Virus record (IMG/VR): IMGVR_UViG_2711768018_000010
Direction: 5' to 3' (one strand)
Length of the DNA stretch: 6,450 nt
From: a virus
Lineage: Duplodnaviria; Heunggongvirae; Uroviricota; Caudoviricetes
Of this stretch, positions 244 through 6,450 are shown in pieces. Positions within the stretch are counted from its first letter, which is position 1. Every line of letters begins with the position of its first letter. The notes under the pieces were generated by a model. It was not told where the DNA came from. It saw only the letters and a list, made by a program, of their open reading frames with translations, and ran no database searches. A program made the position numbers and the translations under genes.

Positions 244-332
244 GCTGACAGGCTTTCATCACATCTGAAAATATAGCACCCTGACTGATACTGTAGTACC
301 TAAGGTTCCAGAAACTGTGATGTATCCGGCAC

Positions 333-355
333 AGAAAAGCCCCTCCGGAGAGGGC
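333..355 (-). terminator. Candidate intrinsic terminator between the methylase/gap region and the tRNA cluster
   Basis: Minus-strand RNA GCCCUCUCCGGAGGGGC forms a GC-rich stem with a one-nucleotide bulge and is followed by UUUUCU. Hand-folded only. Confidence 0.4.
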
Positions 356-544
356 TGGAGAGTGGCGCTATGTGCCATTGCATGATGCCGGGTGCCTCCC
401 GGTGAATTCAGTACCAGCACCTGAATCCGCGATTATCCCATATACCTACTCGCTGATTGCCCCTCCGCACAGGGGGATTCACCATGCCAGTTTCTTTTAA
501 CAAACTCCCCGCAAAACAGACAACTGTCAACCGTCTGAATTGTG

Positions 545-794: not shown

Positions 795-1767
795 GCCCGA
801 GCGCCAGTGCCGCTTTCACTGTCGAACCCAACCCCATGAAAAAATCTGCAATCAGGTCACCCGGACGACTGCTAGCGCTGATTATCTGCTGCAGCATTTC
901 TGCCGGTTTTTCGCACGGATGTTTCCCGGGATAGAACTGCACCGGTTTATGCGTCCACACATCGGTATACGGCACCTGCACCGTCACGCCAAAATACCGC
1001 CGCAGATGTTTATATTCACTCAGCAGCTCCGCATACTGCCGGTTCAGTGAGGTATACGTATCCACCAGCTGGTGGTGGAGCTTTTCCAGTTCACCACGCC
1101 GATGCTTCTCTTCTGCCACCCGGGCAAACAGCGCCTGTAATTTCAGATAATCGCTTTCATTCGGCAACTGCCACTGACCGGCACTGAACCAGTGCGACAC
1201 CATGTTTTTCTTTCCTGTGGCATCTGCAATCTGTTTTGCCGTTATCCCCAGGGCAGCTCGCGCATCACGAAAGTAAGAAATCAGCGGGGCCATCACATGC
1301 TGTTTCAGTGCACTGCCCTTCGCCGCATACCCGGCATCTTTCGGACGATACGGCCCCTGATAATGTTCCGCGAACAGAATGCGCTCTGTGGCGGGGAAAT
1401 ACGCCCGCAGGCTTTCCTTGTTGCATCCGTTCCAGCGTCCGGACGGCTTCGCCCAGATAATATGGTTCAGCACACTGAAGCGTTCACGCATCATGATTTC
1501 GATATCAGATGCCAGGCGATGACCACAGAACAGGTAAAGACTTCCGGCAGGTTTCAGCACCCGCCAGAACTGCGCCAGACACTGGTCCAGCCACTTCAGG
1601 TAATCATCGTCGCCCTTCCACTGGTTATCCCAGCCCTCAGGCTTCACTTTAAAGTACGGCGGGTCCGTGACTATCAGGTCAACAGAATTTTCGGGTAACG
1701 ACCGGATAAATTCCAGGCAGTCGGCGTTGATTAACTCACAACTGGATATTTTTACAGTATTAAGCAT
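795..1767 (-). CDS. DNA methyltransferase, N6-adenine/N4-cytosine type with beta-class motif order (DPPY before FxGxG); orphan, 3' end lost in the N gap
   Basis: ATG at 1767. The N-terminus carries ...DLIVTDPPYF... (motif IV) and the region just before the gap carries ...DFFMGLGSTVKAALALG (motif I, SAM binding), with an HTH-like insert between. 324 codons are visible before the gap. No restriction endonuclease partner is in the window. Confidence 0.85.
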
Positions 1768-1859
1768 GGATCATTAAGCCTGTCTCTGATAGGCTCATTC
1801 TGCTTTTGCGCAAAGCAGTGGGCCTGAGGTTTGCTTGTGAACCCAACGCATGAGCAGAT

Positions 1860-1890
1860 GGCTGGTGGGTGCCCCTAACACCCACCAGCC
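1860..1890. repeat. Perfect 12-bp inverted repeat (7-nt loop) carrying Chi octamers in both orientations
   Basis: GGCTGGTGGGTG-cccctaa-CACCCACCAGCC. The left arm contains GCTGGTGG (1861-1868) and the right arm its complement CCACCAGC (1882-1889). No U tract follows on either strand, so it is not a canonical terminator. Confidence 0.8.
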
Positions 1891-1902
1891 GCCCATTTAC
1901 CA

Positions 1903-1931
1903 CAAATAAAAAAGCCTTCACTGCGGAAGGC
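1903..1931 (-). terminator. Rho-independent terminator just after the 65-aa ORF
   Basis: Minus-strand RNA GCCUUC-cgcagu-GAAGGC (6-bp stem) is followed by UUUUUUAUUUG. The stop codon of the 65-aa ORF lies inside the stem. Confidence 0.7.
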
Positions 1932-2115
1932 GTCTGTAACAACCGAACTGATAGTCTGCCAGACCCGCCATAACCAGCTGGGTCAGTATTAACTGGCAGC
2001 GTTCGCGTGAAAGGTAAGTATTCTGCGCTATCTCCCCGACTGTCGCCGGTTCGGTAACGCTTAATTCATTAAACACCACTCTGGCGGTTTCTGTCATATC
2101 CTGCTGTTTTAGCAT
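1918..2115 (-). CDS. Small hypothetical protein (65 aa), probable winged-helix/HTH DNA-binding fold
   Basis: ATG at 2115 is preceded by AAAAGGAAAAGAC (SD-like). The segment TVGEIAQNTYLSRERCQLILTQLVMAGLA has a helix-turn-helix-like pattern. It sits between two intrinsic terminators, downstream of PR'. Confidence 0.6.
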   Translation of the reverse strand: MLKQQDMTETARVVFNELSVTEPATVGEIAQNTYLSRERCQLILTQLVMAGLADYQFGCYRRLPQ

Positions 2116-2231
2116 GTCTTTTCCTTTTCCGGTTAACGTGACACACCAATAACTCTTGTCGAAAAAGCCAGCAAGCTGAAAGACAGGTATTCACCGCCAC
2201 CAGCGCGTTTACTGTACTGACGCGATTTCAG

Positions 2232-2260
2232 TCATAAAAAACCCGCTCGGCGGCGGGTTG
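2232..2260 (-). terminator. tR'-like intrinsic terminator downstream of the late promoter
   Basis: Minus-strand RNA CCCGC-cgccga-GCGGG is followed by UUUUUUAU, about 68 nt downstream of the predicted PR' start site. Confidence 0.75.
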
Positions 2261-2294
2261 TAGAAACTCTTCTAACGTCAGGCATAAAACGCCC

Positions 2295-2334
2295 ATCGTT
2301 ATAACGAATTTACCACAGATTCCGGAAAAATCAA
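2295..2334 (-). promoter_or_regulatory. Lambda-like late promoter PR' with sigma70-dependent pause element (qut region)
   Basis: Minus strand reads TTGATT (-35, 2334-2329), 16-nt spacer, TGgTAAATT (extended -10, 2315-2307), cgttat, then AACGATGGG (2300-2292). As I recall lambda PR', it has the same TAAATT -10 and the same AACGATGGG pause-inducing element about 7 nt downstream. Confidence 0.7.
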
Positions 2335-2339
2335 CCTTG

Positions 2340-3161
2340 TTACCTAGTTACCTTTTTTAACTGCCGCTCAGCCCATGCTTCTTCAATATCAAACCGGGTC
2401 ACCAGCGCATCATAAAATTTCTTAACTGTTTTTTCCCATGACGCGCGTGTTATCTGGTTTGTCACCTCGCATATAGCATTAAATGCCTCCGTTGATGGTA
2501 GTCTTTCATAGCCACGACCACCACAACGCTGGCAGTCTCTGATAACAGGCATACCACGTTTTACCGACTCTTCACGATGAATGGCGACACCACGCCCACG
2601 GCAATCCTTACAGGCGGTGGAAACCTCACCCTTTCCGCCACACTCCGGACAGGCAACTTTTACCACCTCCCTGACTTTTTTCCATTCTTCCCAGTAAGAC
2701 GGATACACACCTTTCGTACACTTTGCCCATACCGGCGGCTTACCATCCGGATACTGGATCTTGTTTGTAAAAACCTCGCTTTCAATAAATTTTTTTCCGT
2801 GACAGCAGGGGCACTGTTTTTTGCTCGCCGCGCTACGGGCATAATCTTCAAACGCATACGAAGCCATAATACGCATCACTGCCGGTTTTATTTCTGCCGG
2901 GAGTTTTCTTAACGCCGCCACGCGATCACACCGACTGAGTGCATATTCTGTCAGCAATTCTGTTGCCCGCTCTCTGTCATTCATACTAATGCCCATTTTC
3001 CCAAGGAACGCAGAAACCCCCATCTCAGCCCGATTCTGTGTCATGCCCTGCGCGGCCATCACATCAGTGATACTCAGCGCATCTTTCGACGTTGAGGCCG
3101 ATGCATCAGTCAGGCCGGGGGATTTTGGGGAGTAGTATTTCGGTAAATCTTCCAGTTTCAT
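2340..3161 (-). CDS. Q: Late-gene antiterminator Q, lambda-Q family, with an expanded cysteine-rich zinc-finger region (273 aa)
   Basis: The N-terminus MKLEDLPKYYSPKSPGL...DALSITDVMAAQGM and C-terminus ...KTVKKFYDALV...VTR align with lambda Q as I recall it (MRLESVAKFHSPKSPMM...TDVMAAMGM...TVKPLYDALV...AVTR). It has four CxxC knuckles (CPCCHGKK, CPECGGKG, CKDCRGRG, CQRCGGRG) where lambda Q has two. Its start overlaps the rusA stop (ATGA) and it is followed directly by the PR'-like promoter. Confidence 0.85.
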   Translation of the reverse strand: MKLEDLPKYYSPKSPGLTDASASTSKDALSITDVMAAQGMTQNRAEMGVSAFLGKMGISMNDRERATELLTEYALSRCDRVAALRKLPAEIKPAVMRIMASYAFEDYARSAASKKQCPCCHGKKFIESEVFTNKIQYPDGKPPVWAKCTKGVYPSYWEEWKKVREVVKVACPECGGKGEVSTACKDCRGRGVAIHREESVKRGMPVIRDCQRCGGRGYERLPSTEAFNAICEVTNQITRASWEKTVKKFYDALVTRFDIEEAWAERQLKKVTR

Positions 3162-3538
3162 TTTTTGACCTGCCCTTCAAGCATTATGGGATAAATCTTC
3201 ACCCCCAGACGTCCACCAGATACTGGCTGAGCACGAACGATATTGATTTCATCAAACTGCTCATCGTCCATTAGCAACCCCGCATGCGTCAGCGCATCCA
3301 GCGGCGCTTTCAGAATATTGTCCAGGTCACGGCGGCGCTTATCCGGTGGTTCTGCAATAATTTTTATTGCCAACCTTCCGGACAGGCTTAATTTCAGCCG
3401 CTGCTGGCGAACAATAAGCGCCACTGCCCGGCGATAACGCTCCCCGGCTTTTGATACAAAATATGTGCTGCCACGACGACGCCAGTAAGTGTTCACCGTC
3501 GGCGGGTAAGGTAAAACAAATTCTATGCGCTCGGTCAT
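3158..3538 (-). CDS. rusA: Holliday junction resolvase RusA (126 aa)
   Basis: LPYPPTVNTYWR, PDKRRRDLDNILKAPLDALTHAGLLMDDEQ and GGRLGVKI match the E. coli RusA blocks ([50 protein letters not shown]). The ATG follows the upstream stop directly (TAAATG). Confidence 0.9.
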   Translation of the reverse strand: MTERIEFVLPYPPTVNTYWRRRGSTYFVSKAGERYRRAVALIVRQQRLKLSLSGRLAIKIIAEPPDKRRRDLDNILKAPLDALTHAGLLMDDEQFDEINIVRAQPVSGGRLGVKIYPIMLEGQVKK

Positions 3539-4597
3539 TTATGCTTTCCACTTCAGAACACCCGAATTTCTCGCGTGCATTAAAAAACGAATCAGCAACA
3601 ACAGCTGACTGCCGTGTTTCTCTTCAAAATCTTTTACTCCGGCATGTAGTTCGTTACGGCATTTACGGCATAACGGAATAACAAACAAATCATCAGCCTT
3701 TGTTCCCATCCCTCCCAGTCCATGACCAATGATGTGATGCGGATCATCTGCCTGATTGCCACACGTCATGCATTTCTGCGTTTTTACCCAGCGCGTGTAT
3801 ACAGGCATCTCTTCCCGTTGTGATTTCTGGCGCTGGAGATACTGAGCCGGTGACTCCGGATCAACGGCAATGCTGACCACCGTCTTTTCCTGTGGTGGGT
3901 TCTGTTGCTGGTGGACGTGAGGCAGTAACGCAATATTTTTTGTGCGCTGCTTCAGTATGCTGGTGGCTGTCTGCTCTCCCGGTATGATGTCGCTTTCACT
4001 GTACACAGAGCGAATTTTTTCCGCACGCAACCCCAGCGAACGACGTAATACCGCTTCCGGTAGCGCGTCCGCCACCTGATTGCGGACCGCCCACCAGGAT
4101 AATTCAGCCAGAGATAATTCACGCTCCTGCGTACCGCTTATTGCGTGACCGATGACGTCAATCATCCATGCTGACAGGTTTTGATGAGCAAGTTGCTCGA
4201 GTGATTCGGATGTCTGGTCACGCAGCTGGTTGTCGCAGTGCCAGCACAACACCATTGCGCCGGTACCATAACGGTGAATGACGGTTTCGCTGTGATGATA
4301 ATCGCCGTGTGGCCACTGGCAGGATTTAATATGGCGCAACAGCCAGTCAGACAATGCACCAGCACCACCAGCAGCACGAATCACCCGTGCGTTACTGAAA
4401 AACGGCAGCAATGTTTTGTCTTCCACCAGCGGCTGGCGAGCGGCAGGAACGACCCCGGACGGCAGATTACGCATGCTTTTTGGTTCCGGCTCCACCAGTA
4501 TTCTGCCGTTATGGAATGCTGACATTGATTCACGGCCTGGCTTAACGATAACCAGACCGAGTTCCGGTACCAGAACAGGTCGAAGTAATACCCGCAC
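3539..4597 (-). CDS. DUF968-like prophage protein (YdfU-like, 352 aa) with a C-terminal HNH-like Cys/His motif
   Basis: Long ORF with a GTG start at 4597 four nt after GGAGG; an internal ATG (MSAFHNG...) is an alternative start. The C-terminus CMTCGNQADDPHHIIGHGLGG...DDLFVIPLCRKCRNELH resembles an HNH nuclease signature. The hok, small ORF, large ORF, Q order mirrors the K-12 Qin prophage (hokD, rem, ydfU, quuQ) as I recall it. Confidence 0.75.
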   Translation of the reverse strand: MRVLLRPVLVPELGLVIVKPGRESMSAFHNGRILVEPEPKSMRNLPSGVVPAARQPLVEDKTLLPFFSNARVIRAAGGAGALSDWLLRHIKSCQWPHGDYHHSETVIHRYGTGAMVLCWHCDNQLRDQTSESLEQLAHQNLSAWMIDVIGHAISGTQERELSLAELSWWAVRNQVADALPEAVLRRSLGLRAEKIRSVYSESDIIPGEQTATSILKQRTKNIALLPHVHQQQNPPQEKTVVSIAVDPESPAQYLQRQKSQREEMPVYTRWVKTQKCMTCGNQADDPHHIIGHGLGGMGTKADDLFVIPLCRKCRNELHAGVKDFEEKHGSQLLLLIRFLMHARNSGVLKWKA

Positions 4598-4672
4598 ATT
4601 ACCTCCAGATCCGTTGCTGGAATGTGCGGGACGGACGCGTTGGCCGTTCGGAGTAAGGGAGCCTGACGGAGA

Positions 4673-4954
4673 TTATCCAGTGACGGTAGTCGAGGCTAAG
4701 GGCTTTTTTAACCTCGCATCCGCGCCTGCGGTAACACTGAATGAGCCATTCGGCCTGTTCTTCAGTGCATGGGGGATGCTGGTACCAATCAGATTTAAAT
4801 GCGTGAGAGCGCCGCCCGTGCCTGCTGGCAAAGACGGCTGAATTATCAGAATTGTGTAGTCTGGAAGGCAGTGGCTGACAATAGCGCCATTCTCAACGCG
4901 CACAGTATAGAGGCCATCTTCACTAAAAATTTCACGTAATTCTTCGATTTTCAT
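4673..4954 (-). CDS. Hypothetical small protein (about 93 aa from ATG 4954; the ORF track uses TTG 4957)
   Basis: ATG at 4954 is preceded by GGAAGGA (SD-like). The N-terminal half (MKIEELREIFSEDGLYTVRVENGAIVSHC...) looks protein-like; the C-terminal half is compositionally odd, so the true extent is uncertain. It occupies the position of rem in Qin. Confidence 0.45.
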   Translation of the reverse strand: MKIEELREIFSEDGLYTVRVENGAIVSHCLPDYTILIIQPSLPAGTGGALTHLNLIGTSIPHALKNRPNGSFSVTAGADARLKKPLASTTVTG

Positions 4955-5036
4955 CAACAGAATCCTTCCAGATAAATAGCACTCCCCTGTTCGGGGTCCA
5001 TCCCTCTTCTCCCTGCGCGCTACTTAAGTATTTTTG

Positions 5037-5066
5037 ATTCTATTCCGGCACCATCTAAAACTTCAA
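5037..5066 (-). promoter_or_regulatory. Candidate sigma70 promoter for the hypothetical/DUF968/rusA/Q operon
   Basis: Minus strand reads TTGAAG, 18-nt spacer, TAGAAT, immediately downstream of the hok terminator. Motif match only. Confidence 0.25.
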
Positions 5067-5074
5067 ACGCGTTG

Positions 5075-5106
5075 AAAATAAAAACAAAAACCCGCCGAAG
5101 CGGGTT
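5075..5106 (-). terminator. Rho-independent terminator of the hok transcript
   Basis: Minus-strand RNA CCCGC-uucg-GCGGG (5-bp GC stem, UUCG tetraloop) is followed by UUUUUGUUUUUAUUUUC. Confidence 0.75.
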
Positions 5107-5174
5107 AAGTGTGGGTGCATTGAGGATGCCTGCCCCATCAGAGGTGGCGAGGGATTTCTCCCCCGCCTGGTCTC

Positions 5175-5330
5175 TTACTCCTCAGGTTCGTAAGCTGTGA
5201 AGACAGCGACCTCCGTCTGGCCGGTTCGAATTCGTACCTCGCAGAGGTCTTTCCTCGTTACCAGTGCCGTCACTATGACGGTTAAACAGATGACGATCAG
5301 GGCGATTAACATCGCCTTTTGCTGCTTCAT
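5175..5330 (-). CDS. hokD: Hok-family type I toxin (51 aa), HokD/RelF-like
   Basis: MKQQKAMLIALIVICLTVIVTALVTRKDLCEVRIRTGQTEVAVFTAYEPEE matches K-12 HokD (RelF) as I recall it and has the Hok single transmembrane helix. ATG at 5330 lies 9 nt after AAGGAG. Confidence 0.85.
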   Translation of the reverse strand: MKQQKAMLIALIVICLTVIVTALVTRKDLCEVRIRTGQTEVAVFTAYEPEE

Positions 5331-5387
5331 AGCCTGCTTCTCCTTGCCTTTCGGCACGTAAGAGGCTAACCTAGATTTGCCGTTCAT
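5175..5387 (-). CDS. mok-like in-frame upstream reading frame (70 codons) overlapping hok
   Basis: An in-frame ATG at 5387 (GAGG 8 nt upstream) extends Hok by 19 residues (MNGKSRLASYVPKGKEKQA). In hok/mok loci, as I recall the K-12 annotation, mok is an N-terminally extended frame sharing the hok stop (mokC 69 aa versus hokC 50 aa). Confidence 0.5.
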   Translation of the reverse strand: MNGKSRLASYVPKGKEKQAMKQQKAMLIALIVICLTVIVTALVTRKDLCEVRIRTGQTEVAVFTAYEPEE

Positions 5388-5621
5388 AGATTGAGCCTCA
5401 GATTAATGTTAAGCGTCTTGCCGGACGCGTAATGTTAACTGGGGCTTTTCTCTATCTGCCTTTTGGTGTTCATGCCTGAGACAGATAGCCTCAAGCACCC
5501 GCTGCAATTCTACTTAACTCTCCTTTTCCCGCAAACCGTTTTTATCCCCAGCGGCAAATCGAATACACCACCAGCGCCACCGCCATCGCAATTCCTACCG
5601 TTGTTAATGCTTCAGGCCAGG

Positions 5622-5966
5622 TCATCGTAAAATATCCTCCACGCTTATCAGTCCGTTCCGCTCCAGATAACTCATCGCCTTATCCGGTAATTTGCAGTCT
5701 GGCTTCGCTTTCCTCAGTTGCCAGGTTAACTGCTTTACCAGCATGGTTAACTCATCGACCAGACGCTGATATCCCACTGGTTTGTATTCATGCAATTTAC
5801 CGGCTGGCTCTGCTGCCAGCGATACCAGTGCGATTTCCAGAACAGCAATATCCATCTTATATGTGCGGATGATGTCATGGTCGATTGTGCCCGGTATGCA
5901 CAGTCTCTGTGCTTCAATAGTCTCCTCTGCGTGAGCTATTAACTGCTCTCTGGTAAAAGTCGTCAT
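5622..5966 (-). CDS. Hypothetical protein (114 aa), paralogous to the adjacent 55-aa ORF
   Basis: ATG at 5966 overlaps the stop of the upstream 55-aa ORF (ATGA). It shares MTTFTREQL and [10 protein letters not shown] with MTTITKERI and [10 protein letters not shown] of the 55-aa ORF. Confidence 0.65.
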
Positions 5967-6140: not shown

Positions 6141-6450
6141 TTAACCCGCAGTGCTTTCAACTGATGAGGGGAACAAAATCTTTTCATCAAACCCTGCATT
6201 CATATCATGAACAGCAACACACCAATCCATCGACGAACGATTATCAAGAGCCTCCATGATTTCATCCATGCGGCGTAGGTCATACAGGTAAATGCTTTTA
6301 TCGCCAATGGTGTAAAAGCCAATTTTTTTCGGTGATGGATGAGGTGTACTGGCAATAGCGGACACTACCATTTGTTCTTTTTTTAAGCAGCCATCTGATG
6401 ATATTTTTCCCTGAAGGCTGCCGGGGAGATATTCCCCAGACGAGAGTGAC
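6141..6450 (-). CDS. Hypothetical protein, probably 5'-partial (reading frame open to the right window edge)
   Basis: The ORF track starts it at ATG 6371 (76 aa), but that ATG has no SD and the same frame stays open with no stop up to position 6450. The C-terminus is ...FPSSVESTAG with TAA at 6143-6141 overlapping the SD of the 55-aa ORF. Confidence 0.5.
   Translation of the reverse strand, partial: SLSSGEYLPGSLQGKISSDGCLKKEQMVVSAIASTPHPSPKKIGFYTIGDKSIYLYDLRRMDEIMEALDNRSSMDWCVAVHDMNAGFDEKILFPSSVESTAG

Follow-up and report, generated by a model that had tools for sequence, protein, structure and literature searches.

How did a short piece of a prophage remnant come to hold ten copies of Chi, the 8-base signal that switches RecBCD from DNA destruction to repair, and what selection, if any, put them there? 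This question is raised by a stretch of 6,450 nt from the IMG/VR virus record IMGVR_UViG_2711768018_000010, referred to here as the window, which comprises about 6.2 kb of called sequence once a run of 250 N is excluded. Within a lambdoid prophage, the window makes up the nin/Q segment, and a search for GCTGGTGG on both strands finds four exact copies on its plus strand (starting at 1068, 1861, 3907 and 3959) and six on its minus strand (1062, 1882, 2197, 4365, 4423 and 5568). An initial annotation of the window had listed nine copies, all of which lie where it placed them and on the strands it assigned, and had missed the tenth at 3959-3966 (+). The cluster is probably the legacy of selection in a lambdoid lineage that lacked Gam and a recombinase of its own and depended on the RecBCD-RecA pathway of the host.

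The enrichment itself is real and strong. Dinucleotide-preserving shuffles of the window contain 0.20 Chi on average, which reproduces the random expectation of about 0.2 given in the initial annotation, and none of 200 shuffles held ten or more. Chi is the most frequent 8-mer of the window, the runner-up occurring five times. One-mismatch variants number only ten (the shuffle mean for all matches with at most one mismatch is 5.75), and the excess is therefore specific to the exact octamer; a general compositional bias towards Chi-like sequence was rejected because these variants are barely enriched. An origin from a repeated unit was likewise rejected, as the ten sites have unrelated flanks and differing reading frames. 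At 1.61 per kb, Chi is eight times as dense in the window as in the host DNA flanking the closest E. coli relative (0.20 per kb; nine Chi in 44 kb), and the latter value agrees with the one Chi per 4.6 kb of E. coli K-12 (PMC12315714). At the density of the E. coli chromosome the window would be expected to hold about 1.3 Chi, and the Poisson probability of at least ten in 6.2 kb is about 1e-6. The initial annotation had proposed a comparison with host DNA and with shuffled controls, and a similar density was found in neither.

The codon-preserving shuffles that it had also proposed bear on the possibility that the octamers are passive by-products of conserved peptide motifs written in preferred codons and of local dyad symmetries, without any selection for Chi. 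The sites do fall on a few motif types (L-V followed by a G-initial codon, A-G-G, A-T-S and H-Q), and those in ydfU, the DUF968 gene discussed below, match the family-wide motifs RVLVE, AAGG, PATS and VHQQ. The expectation for sense sites under synonymous shuffling is non-negligible, being 0.59 in the N6/N4 DNA methylase gene and 0.40 in ydfU, and the bottom-strand copies at 1861 and 1068 complement top-strand sites in a hairpin and a palindrome, respectively. Permuting synonymous codons within each gene, however, gives 1.2 coding Chi where six are observed, and none of 1000 shuffles reached six; across 20 DUF968 homologs, 14.6 are expected and 64 observed. The restriction of the excess to the exact octamer also speaks against a by-product, as does the fact that some alleles gain Chi through an amino-acid change (I to M at 99, A to V at 168). 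Furthermore, four Chi are not among the six coding sites: neither the hairpin pair 1861 and 1882 nor the site at 2197 is in coding sequence, and the site at 5568 lies in a small unannotated open reading frame (ORF). A purely passive origin is therefore unlikely.

The orientation of the sites can be read against the map of the phage. From high to low coordinates the window holds the end of an IS3-family element, small ORFs, hok/sok, a rem-like ORF, ydfU, rusA and Q. Q is followed by a sequence resembling a promoter and by a terminator, then by an ORF of 65 codons that has a terminator of its own and by the N6/N4 DNA methylase gene; past this gene lie a masked run of 250 N, a match to the small RNA STnc100 and a tRNA array. 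In relatives, this segment is preceded by O/P-like genes and followed by lysis and terminase genes, a lambdoid order that matches the window, and in intact relatives cos lies about 7-9 kb beyond the window region. Among the more distant relatives, at 88-94% nucleotide identity, are the phage mEp460_ev081, which has been sequenced, and predicted prophages. This gene content and order bears out the prophage origin that had been proposed for the sequence. All genes of the window are on its minus strand, and since nin and Q run rightward on the standard lambda map, the top strand of that map corresponds to the minus strand of the window. According to Zheng et al. (2025), RecBCD that enters at the right-hand cos is activated by GCTGGTGG when this lies on the top strand (PMC12315714).

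Six of the ten sites are in this active top-strand orientation and four are on the bottom strand, a split for which the binomial p is 0.75, so that the description of the sites as mostly in one orientation finds no support inside the window. The initial annotation had also suggested relating orientation to cos and to the host. On both counts the six top-strand sites agree, with the phage map and with the 6:1 skew of Chi in the host DNA that flanks the E. coli relative at ompW, and the other four do not. In the relatives the wider distribution of Chi clearly favours the top strand, and strongly so outside the cluster. Taken over 80 IMG/VR loci, the 10 kb that precede ydfU contain 106 sense and 12 antisense Chi, and the ratios of top to bottom sites in whole relatives are 8:4, 7:2, 15:3, 11:4 and 3:1. 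Two of the four bottom-strand sites of the window, at 1861 and 1068, look like by-products of local dyad symmetry (a hairpin arm and a palindrome), and the remaining two are conserved antisense sites in ydfU (Table 1).

Table 1. Chi sites, related sequences and neighbouring genes of the window. Conservation is given as the number of relatives with the feature among those that cover the site, and the denominator therefore differs from site to site.
Feature	Position	Strand	Context and evidence	Relatives
Chi	1062-1069	-	top strand, active orientation; sense in N6/N4 methylase gene (Q-L-V-D)	10/26
Chi	1068-1075	+	bottom strand	19/26
GC-rich hairpin GGCUGGUGGGUG(7-nt loop)CACCCACCAGCC	1860-1890	-	spacer between 65-aa ORF and methylase; stem in minimum free energy fold	
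Chi	2197-2204	-	top strand; non-coding late-operon leader, ~35 nt downstream of terminator hairpin after Q	30/36
Chi	3907-3914	+	bottom strand, antisense; ydfU gene position 684 (V-H-Q-Q motif)	79/80
Chi	3959-3966	+	bottom strand, antisense; ydfU gene position 632 (A-T-S motif)	75/80
Chi	4365-4372	-	top strand, sense; ydfU gene position 226 (A-G-G motif)	55/80
Chi	4423-4430	-	top strand, sense; ydfU gene position 168 (P-L-V-E)	21/80
One-mismatch Chi ACTGGTGG	4492-4499	-	ydfU gene position 99; full Chi in other alleles and distant homologs	
Chi	5568-5575	-	top strand; in unannotated 27-codon hydrophobic ORF	18/20
ydfU, DUF968 / predicted His-Me (HNH) nuclease family	3539-4597	-	Pfam DUF968 2.6e-62, HNHc_6 1.9e-6; densest part of cluster	
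rusA	3158-3538	-	RusA annotation in relatives; no Chi	
Late antiterminator Q	2340-3161	-	Pfam Antiterm, Q annotation in relatives; no Chi	
N6/N4 DNA methyltransferase gene	795-1767	-	Pfam N6_N4_Mtase 1.4e-35; 3' end hidden by 250-N run 545-794	
hok/sok type I toxin-antitoxin module	5175-5500	-	Rfam sok 112 bits; HOK_GEF and hokD annotations	
End of IS3-family insertion sequence	6340-6450		prophage truncated upstream of small nin-region ORFs	

A mechanism that could have produced this cluster would begin with the cutting of cos by terminase and the entry of RecBCD at the right end. The enzyme would then unwind and degrade the DNA leftward through the lysis, Q and nin regions, and each top-strand 5'-GCTGGTGG-3', on the minus strand of the window, could switch it to RecA loading. 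Such a switch would limit degradation and promote recombination, leading to packageable concatemers, and selection would pile exact Chi octamers between ori and cos. We infer both the activity of RecBCD at the Chi sites of the window and past selection for it. The initial annotation had proposed that Chi attenuates RecBCD degradation and would thereby protect the phage DNA ends in this region. The pathway agrees with work on lambdoid phages without a RecBCD inhibitor, in which the role of Chi is to stimulate recombination that makes packageable concatemers, rather than simple end protection (PMC3784561, PMC12315714). Moreover, no phage end lies in this region, given the distance to cos in intact relatives.

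The peak of the cluster can be placed at the level of genes. ydfU holds four Chi against 0.53 expected from synonymous shuffles, and rusA and Q together hold none, with about zero expected; over the 80 loci, the bin that covers rusA and Q contains no Chi in 75.8 kb. In the profile of these loci the sense density upstream is about 0.2 per kb and thus host-like, the peak lies in ydfU, at 1.7 sites per kb in sense and 1.9 in antisense, and a second peak 2-4 kb downstream of ydfU corresponds to the post-Q leader, the hairpin and the methylase gene. A survey of 76 distinct close ydfU alleles shows that the sense gene positions 42, 99, 168 and 226 alternate between exact Chi and mostly one-mismatch variants. 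One to three exact sense Chi are kept in 68 of these alleles, and the antisense sites at 632 and 684 are nearly fixed. The site at 4423 is an example of such alternation, reading GCTGGCGG in 45 of the 80 relatives. The Chi of ydfU lie in differing reading frames and are therefore not copies of one peptide repeat.

The positions are also shared by far more divergent homologs. A deeper comparison was made with 21 DUF968 homologs from GTDB species genomes, with 33-95% amino-acid identity to the protein of the window, which come from Escherichia, Shigella, Enterobacter, Kosakonia, Phytobacter, Buttiauxella and Symbiopectobacterium. Nucleotide identity between the homolog groups is only 51-55%. Nearly every homolog still has 2-5 Chi, and these fall in matching alignment columns, near 42, 99, 226 and 500 for the sense sites and near 630 and 684 for the antisense sites; homologs at 33-55% amino-acid identity keep these positions. 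The column of the Chi at 4365 is shared with homologs of 43-50% amino-acid identity, and that of the Chi at 3959 with homologs down to 47% identity. Conserved motifs explain why the positions recur, and they do not account for the choice of codons. Three of the homolog contigs (L102, L104 and L109) are labelled as metagenome-assembled genomes of Veillonella parvula, Geobacteraceae and Caulobacter segnis despite their enterobacterial-type DUF968 prophage regions; these labels are probably binning contamination rather than true hosts.

The two antisense sites raise the possibility that the Chi of ydfU form a selected array that faces inward, the sense sites lying in the 5' third of the gene and the antisense sites about 400 bp beyond them. 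Such an array could stop RecBCD from either side, or could channel a break inside the gene, possibly made by the encoded putative HNH-family nuclease, into RecA-dependent recombination or replication. DUF968 is a predicted His-Me/HNH nuclease family whose genes are typically found beside rusA and Q, and its Gram-positive members have an Orf-like N-terminus (PMC5714182, PMC4118853). In favour of a two-way element, the antisense sites are present in nearly all close relatives (Table 1), the antisense density elsewhere is near random (0.02 per kb upstream against the peak in ydfU), the distant homologs keep the same sense and antisense positions, and 25 antisense Chi are observed in the 20 homologs where synonymous shuffles give 2.1. 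On the other hand, many other octamers of the gene are conserved among close alleles as well as the antisense ones, which rank at percentiles 0.78 and 0.91; antisense sites are absent from the homolog group L104-L107, codon identity between homolog groups is raised modestly at Chi columns (0.52, compared with 0.39 elsewhere), and the geometry was noticed post hoc. A two-way element of this kind is thus rather unlikely, and a selected two-way function of these sites is possible and unproven.

A broader form of this idea, speculative and likewise rather unlikely, would make the DUF968 gene of enterobacterial lambdoids an ancient selected carrier of Chi in both orientations, acting as a two-way RecBCD checkpoint or as a site at which nuclease breaks are processed. 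The 5' half of the gene would hold one to three sites in sense, and one or two in antisense would follow some 400 bp later, a pattern that would extend across Escherichia, Enterobacter, Kosakonia, Phytobacter and Symbiopectobacterium at about 50% nucleotide identity. The checkpoint would sit between the replication and late regions; alternatively, the break would start recombination-dependent replication in phages without a recombinase. A literature search found no paper that links the ydfU/DUF968 gene to Chi, and the presence of Chi in two orientations at homologous positions of DUF968 genes seems undescribed, making it the only potentially new element here.

Returning to the cluster as a legacy of selection for RecBCD-Chi activity, three top-strand sites lie outside annotated genes, and two of these, at 2197 and 1882, are clearly non-coding. 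Since the site at 2197 is non-coding, codon usage cannot explain it. Upstream of it, directly after the Q stop (2240-2330, -), lies a promoter-like TTGATT-N16-TAAATT followed about 30 nt on by a strong intrinsic terminator, AACCCGCCGCCGAGCGGGTTTTTT; judged from the sequence, a pR'/tR' late-control region under the action of Q would be laid out in this way. The third site, at 5568, lies in a 27-codon ORF (5545-5625, -). This ORF has a GGAGGA Shine-Dalgarno sequence and an ATG that overlaps the stop codon of an upstream 114-aa ORF (ATGA), and no annotation was found for it in the relatives.

The site at 1882 forms one arm of the hairpin in Table 1, the arms of which are Chi 1882-1889 (-, top strand) and Chi 1861-1868 (+, bottom strand). 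The two arms differ in conservation, the top-strand Chi being kept in 30 of 31 relatives and the bottom-strand Chi in 16 of 29. Variants in the arms turn three pairs into G.U wobbles, and they do so on the minus-strand RNA only. Since the variants at 1861 are compatible with wobble pairing and Chi is kept there in only 16 of 29, this copy looks as if it had arisen as the pairing partner of a selected top-strand Chi in a hairpin, be it of RNA or of DNA, and not as a Chi selected for itself. Covariation support for an RNA hairpin is weak, consisting of one-sided G.U changes with no compensatory pairs. The hairpin was also considered as a Rho-independent terminator and rejected, because the stem is followed by AUCUGCUCAUG, which has no U-run; a terminator scan reports 2259-2240 and 1931-1914 and not the hairpin at 1860-1890.

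The sites at 1062 and 1068 overlap to form a perfect 14-bp palindrome, CCACCAGCTGGTGG (1062-1075). At 1062-1069, relatives without Chi read GCTGGTCA or ACTGGTCA, and the full palindrome is present in only part of the alleles; it is thus specific to certain alleles, and probably incidental. The palindrome has a PvuII-type CAGCTG core and lies inside the gene for the N6/N4 DNA methyltransferase.

A lineage with neither a RecBCD inhibitor nor a recombinase of its own would depend on the host RecBCD-RecA pathway. No homolog of lambda Gam, lambda Bet or Rac RecT was found by tblastn in about 115 related loci, including four complete phage genomes, in a search that did not extend to the P22-type Abc2, Erf and Sak4. 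The queries were validated as members of the Pfam families Gam and RecT. Left of the repressor, intact or near-intact relatives encode only a protein of 823 aa whose 3'-5' exonuclease domain is DnaQ-like, together with DicB, DUF1482 and DUF1391, and DnaQ-type nucleases near int are not counted as Rec modules by Zheng et al. (PMC12315714). Three intact relatives have 0.43-0.82 Chi per kb between O and terminase, about twofold the genome-wide 0.20-0.39 per kb. The Stx2a phage Stx2_95 (L096), which has the methylase gene and a divergent ydfU in common with the window, carries nine top-strand Chi within 7 kb of its replication/nin/Q region (7070-14039) and 15 top-strand against three bottom-strand Chi genome-wide, and its annotation contains no recognisable Rec module.

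Several observations weigh against the selective reading. Orientation within the window is only 6:4, and several of the Chi sites are polymorphic among close alleles. Over their whole genomes the closest intact relatives have a modest density of Chi (0.09-0.42 per kb), and one relative, PPompW_132418, has only four Chi; the lineage is therefore not uniformly Chi-rich in the manner of phage LLS. The status of recombination genes had to be read from relatives, as the early-left region is deleted in the genomes that have the identical ydfU allele. With Gam, Bet and RecT found in none of the loci, the ydfU alleles offer no contrast between Gam+ and Gam- phages.

The element that carries the cluster today is a remnant, and the window is in part identical to a prophage remnant of Shigella sonnei. 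An identical ydfU protein (100%) is found in many Shigella sonnei chromosomes, including Ss046, in which the element adjoins ompW and is cut by several insertion sequence (IS) copies. No integrase, replication or terminase genes were found in the 21-kb S. sonnei loci with the identical ydfU allele. As the element is an IS-truncated remnant, its sites no longer serve a phage and are a fossil of phage selection; at most they could act as a strong local hotspot for RecBCD on the chromosome. A protective role in the present, which the initial annotation had implied, can be set aside with the loss of a functional phage.

That the element is a decayed remnant also opens the possibility that a long-resident cryptic prophage gained Chi in the same way as the chromosome, for the repair of collapsed forks. 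Zheng et al. caution that cryptic prophages may accumulate Chi as the chromosome does (PMC12315714), and the six top-strand sites share the orientation of the skew in the adjacent host DNA of the E. coli relative. By contrast, accumulation at the pace of the host is at odds with the eightfold density over the host flanks and with the four sites in the orientation that the host disfavours. The same sites also occur in many viral contigs and in the genomes of sequenced phages, mEp460_ev081 among them, and the pattern recurs in DUF968-bearing prophages of other genera. Accumulation driven by the host is thus very unlikely, and selection in the phage lineage remains the preferred explanation.

The boundaries of the remnant can be described further. 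Homology to the E. coli relative ends at 6339, and an identical IS end adjoins the region in the S. sonnei loci. The segment 6340-6450 consists of the terminal inverted repeat and the transposase C-terminus of an IS3-family element, copies of which flank the nin/Q segment on both sides in S. sonnei (L012 7059-8215 and 14667-15823). The prophage is further dissected by IS1 and IS4-like insertions, one of which lies inside a tRNA in strain CP022672. The best match in a complete E. coli genome is a prophage remnant at ompW in strain TUM10008, with 97% identity and a 1.9-kb indel relative to the window. TUM10008 carries an insertion of 1.8 kb that is absent from the window at about 5085-5105 (L001 11923-13736); the insertion contains a gene for a helix-turn-helix protein and a hypothetical gene, and about 20 bp are shared at the junction.

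At the other end, positions 545-794 are exactly 250 N, which mask the 3' end of the methylase gene and what follows. A tRNA array (1-215) is joined within a tRNA-Ile-like gene to the STnc100 region (216-544), in which the Rfam small RNA family STnc100 has a full-length match at 327-516 (-) with 123.6 bits, compared with a gathering score of 47. In S. sonnei Ss046, CP022672 and E. coli TUM10008 the order is different, with one Arg-Arg-Ile tRNA array placed between the methylase gene and the STnc100 region. The arrangement in the window could reflect a duplication, a rearrangement or an artefact of assembly or masking.

The cluster is a statistically strong example of a phage that does not disarm RecBCD and writes the "self" signal of the host into its own DNA. 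This signal outlives the phage, as it persists in an IS-shredded Shigella remnant, and the remnant cluster may still act as a hotspot at which recombination between prophages is favoured. The main phenomenon has been published and is here mainly confirmed and localised. What is added is resolution at the level of genes, with the peak in ydfU, a nuclease-family gene, and in the post-Q leader. If the recurrence of Chi in two orientations in ydfU should be under selection, this would refine a model that counts only the cos-directed orientation as useful.

Among known systems, the red gam chi+ mutants of lambda are related to the window by the identical octamer and by the cos orientation rule, under which RecBCD from the right end reads GCTGGTGG on the top strand. 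Wild-type lambda is without Chi and encodes Gam, and in contrast to the sites of the window, the Chi of the mutants arose singly by laboratory mutation. The chromosomal Chi of E. coli (about one per 4.6 kb, with a leading-strand bias) have the same motif and are co-oriented, through the flank skew, with the six top-strand sites, whereas the window is eightfold denser and has 40% of its sites in the disfavoured orientation. Phage P1, with 50 Chi in 94.8 kb and a requirement for RecBCD (cited in PMC12315714), is likewise a temperate phage with Chi as its most frequent octamer that makes productive use of host RecBCD; it is not lambdoid, however, and has about 0.5 Chi per kb genome-wide as compared with a local cluster of 1.6 per kb.

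The closest precedents are found among the lambdoids. Bobay, Touchon and Rocha (2013) found Chi to be over-represented in lambdoids without a RecBCD inhibitor (Inh-) and concentrated from gene O to cos (PMC3784561). The window belongs to an enterobacterial lambdoid prophage whose relatives have no recognisable inhibitor, and it lies in the interval between ori and cos, after the replication genes and before the lysis and terminase genes. In contrast to that study, which averages over bins of 5% of the genome, does not analyse orientation and singles out no gene, the peak can here be assigned to ydfU and to the leader that follows Q. Zheng, Casjens, Davidson, Amundsen and Smith (2025, Genome Res) showed that lambdoids without a Rec module carry many top-strand Chi near the right end, and that in phage LLS, which grows better when RecBCD is present, Chi is the most frequent octamer and is unexplained by codon usage (PMC12315714). 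The window resembles the LLS type in its lambdoid gene order and in having Chi as its most frequent octamer. Its relatives, in which no Gam, Bet, RecT or Exo was found, resemble that type in the bias of Chi to the top strand and in its concentration towards the right (Q/lysis/cos) end. In LLS itself, 20 top-strand and three bottom-strand sites are spread over 43 kb, whereas the window has ten in 6.2 kb at a ratio of 6:4, its closest intact relatives carry 3-15 top-strand Chi genome-wide, and its element is a non-functional remnant. The functional type typically has at least eight top-strand and at most six bottom-strand Chi per genome; some relatives fall within this range and some do not, and the window alone has six and four. 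The window is thus an instance of the published Chi pattern, the kind being already known, and differs from it in two respects: its extreme local density, and the 40% of its sites in the "inactive" orientation, half of which are the conserved antisense sites of ydfU.

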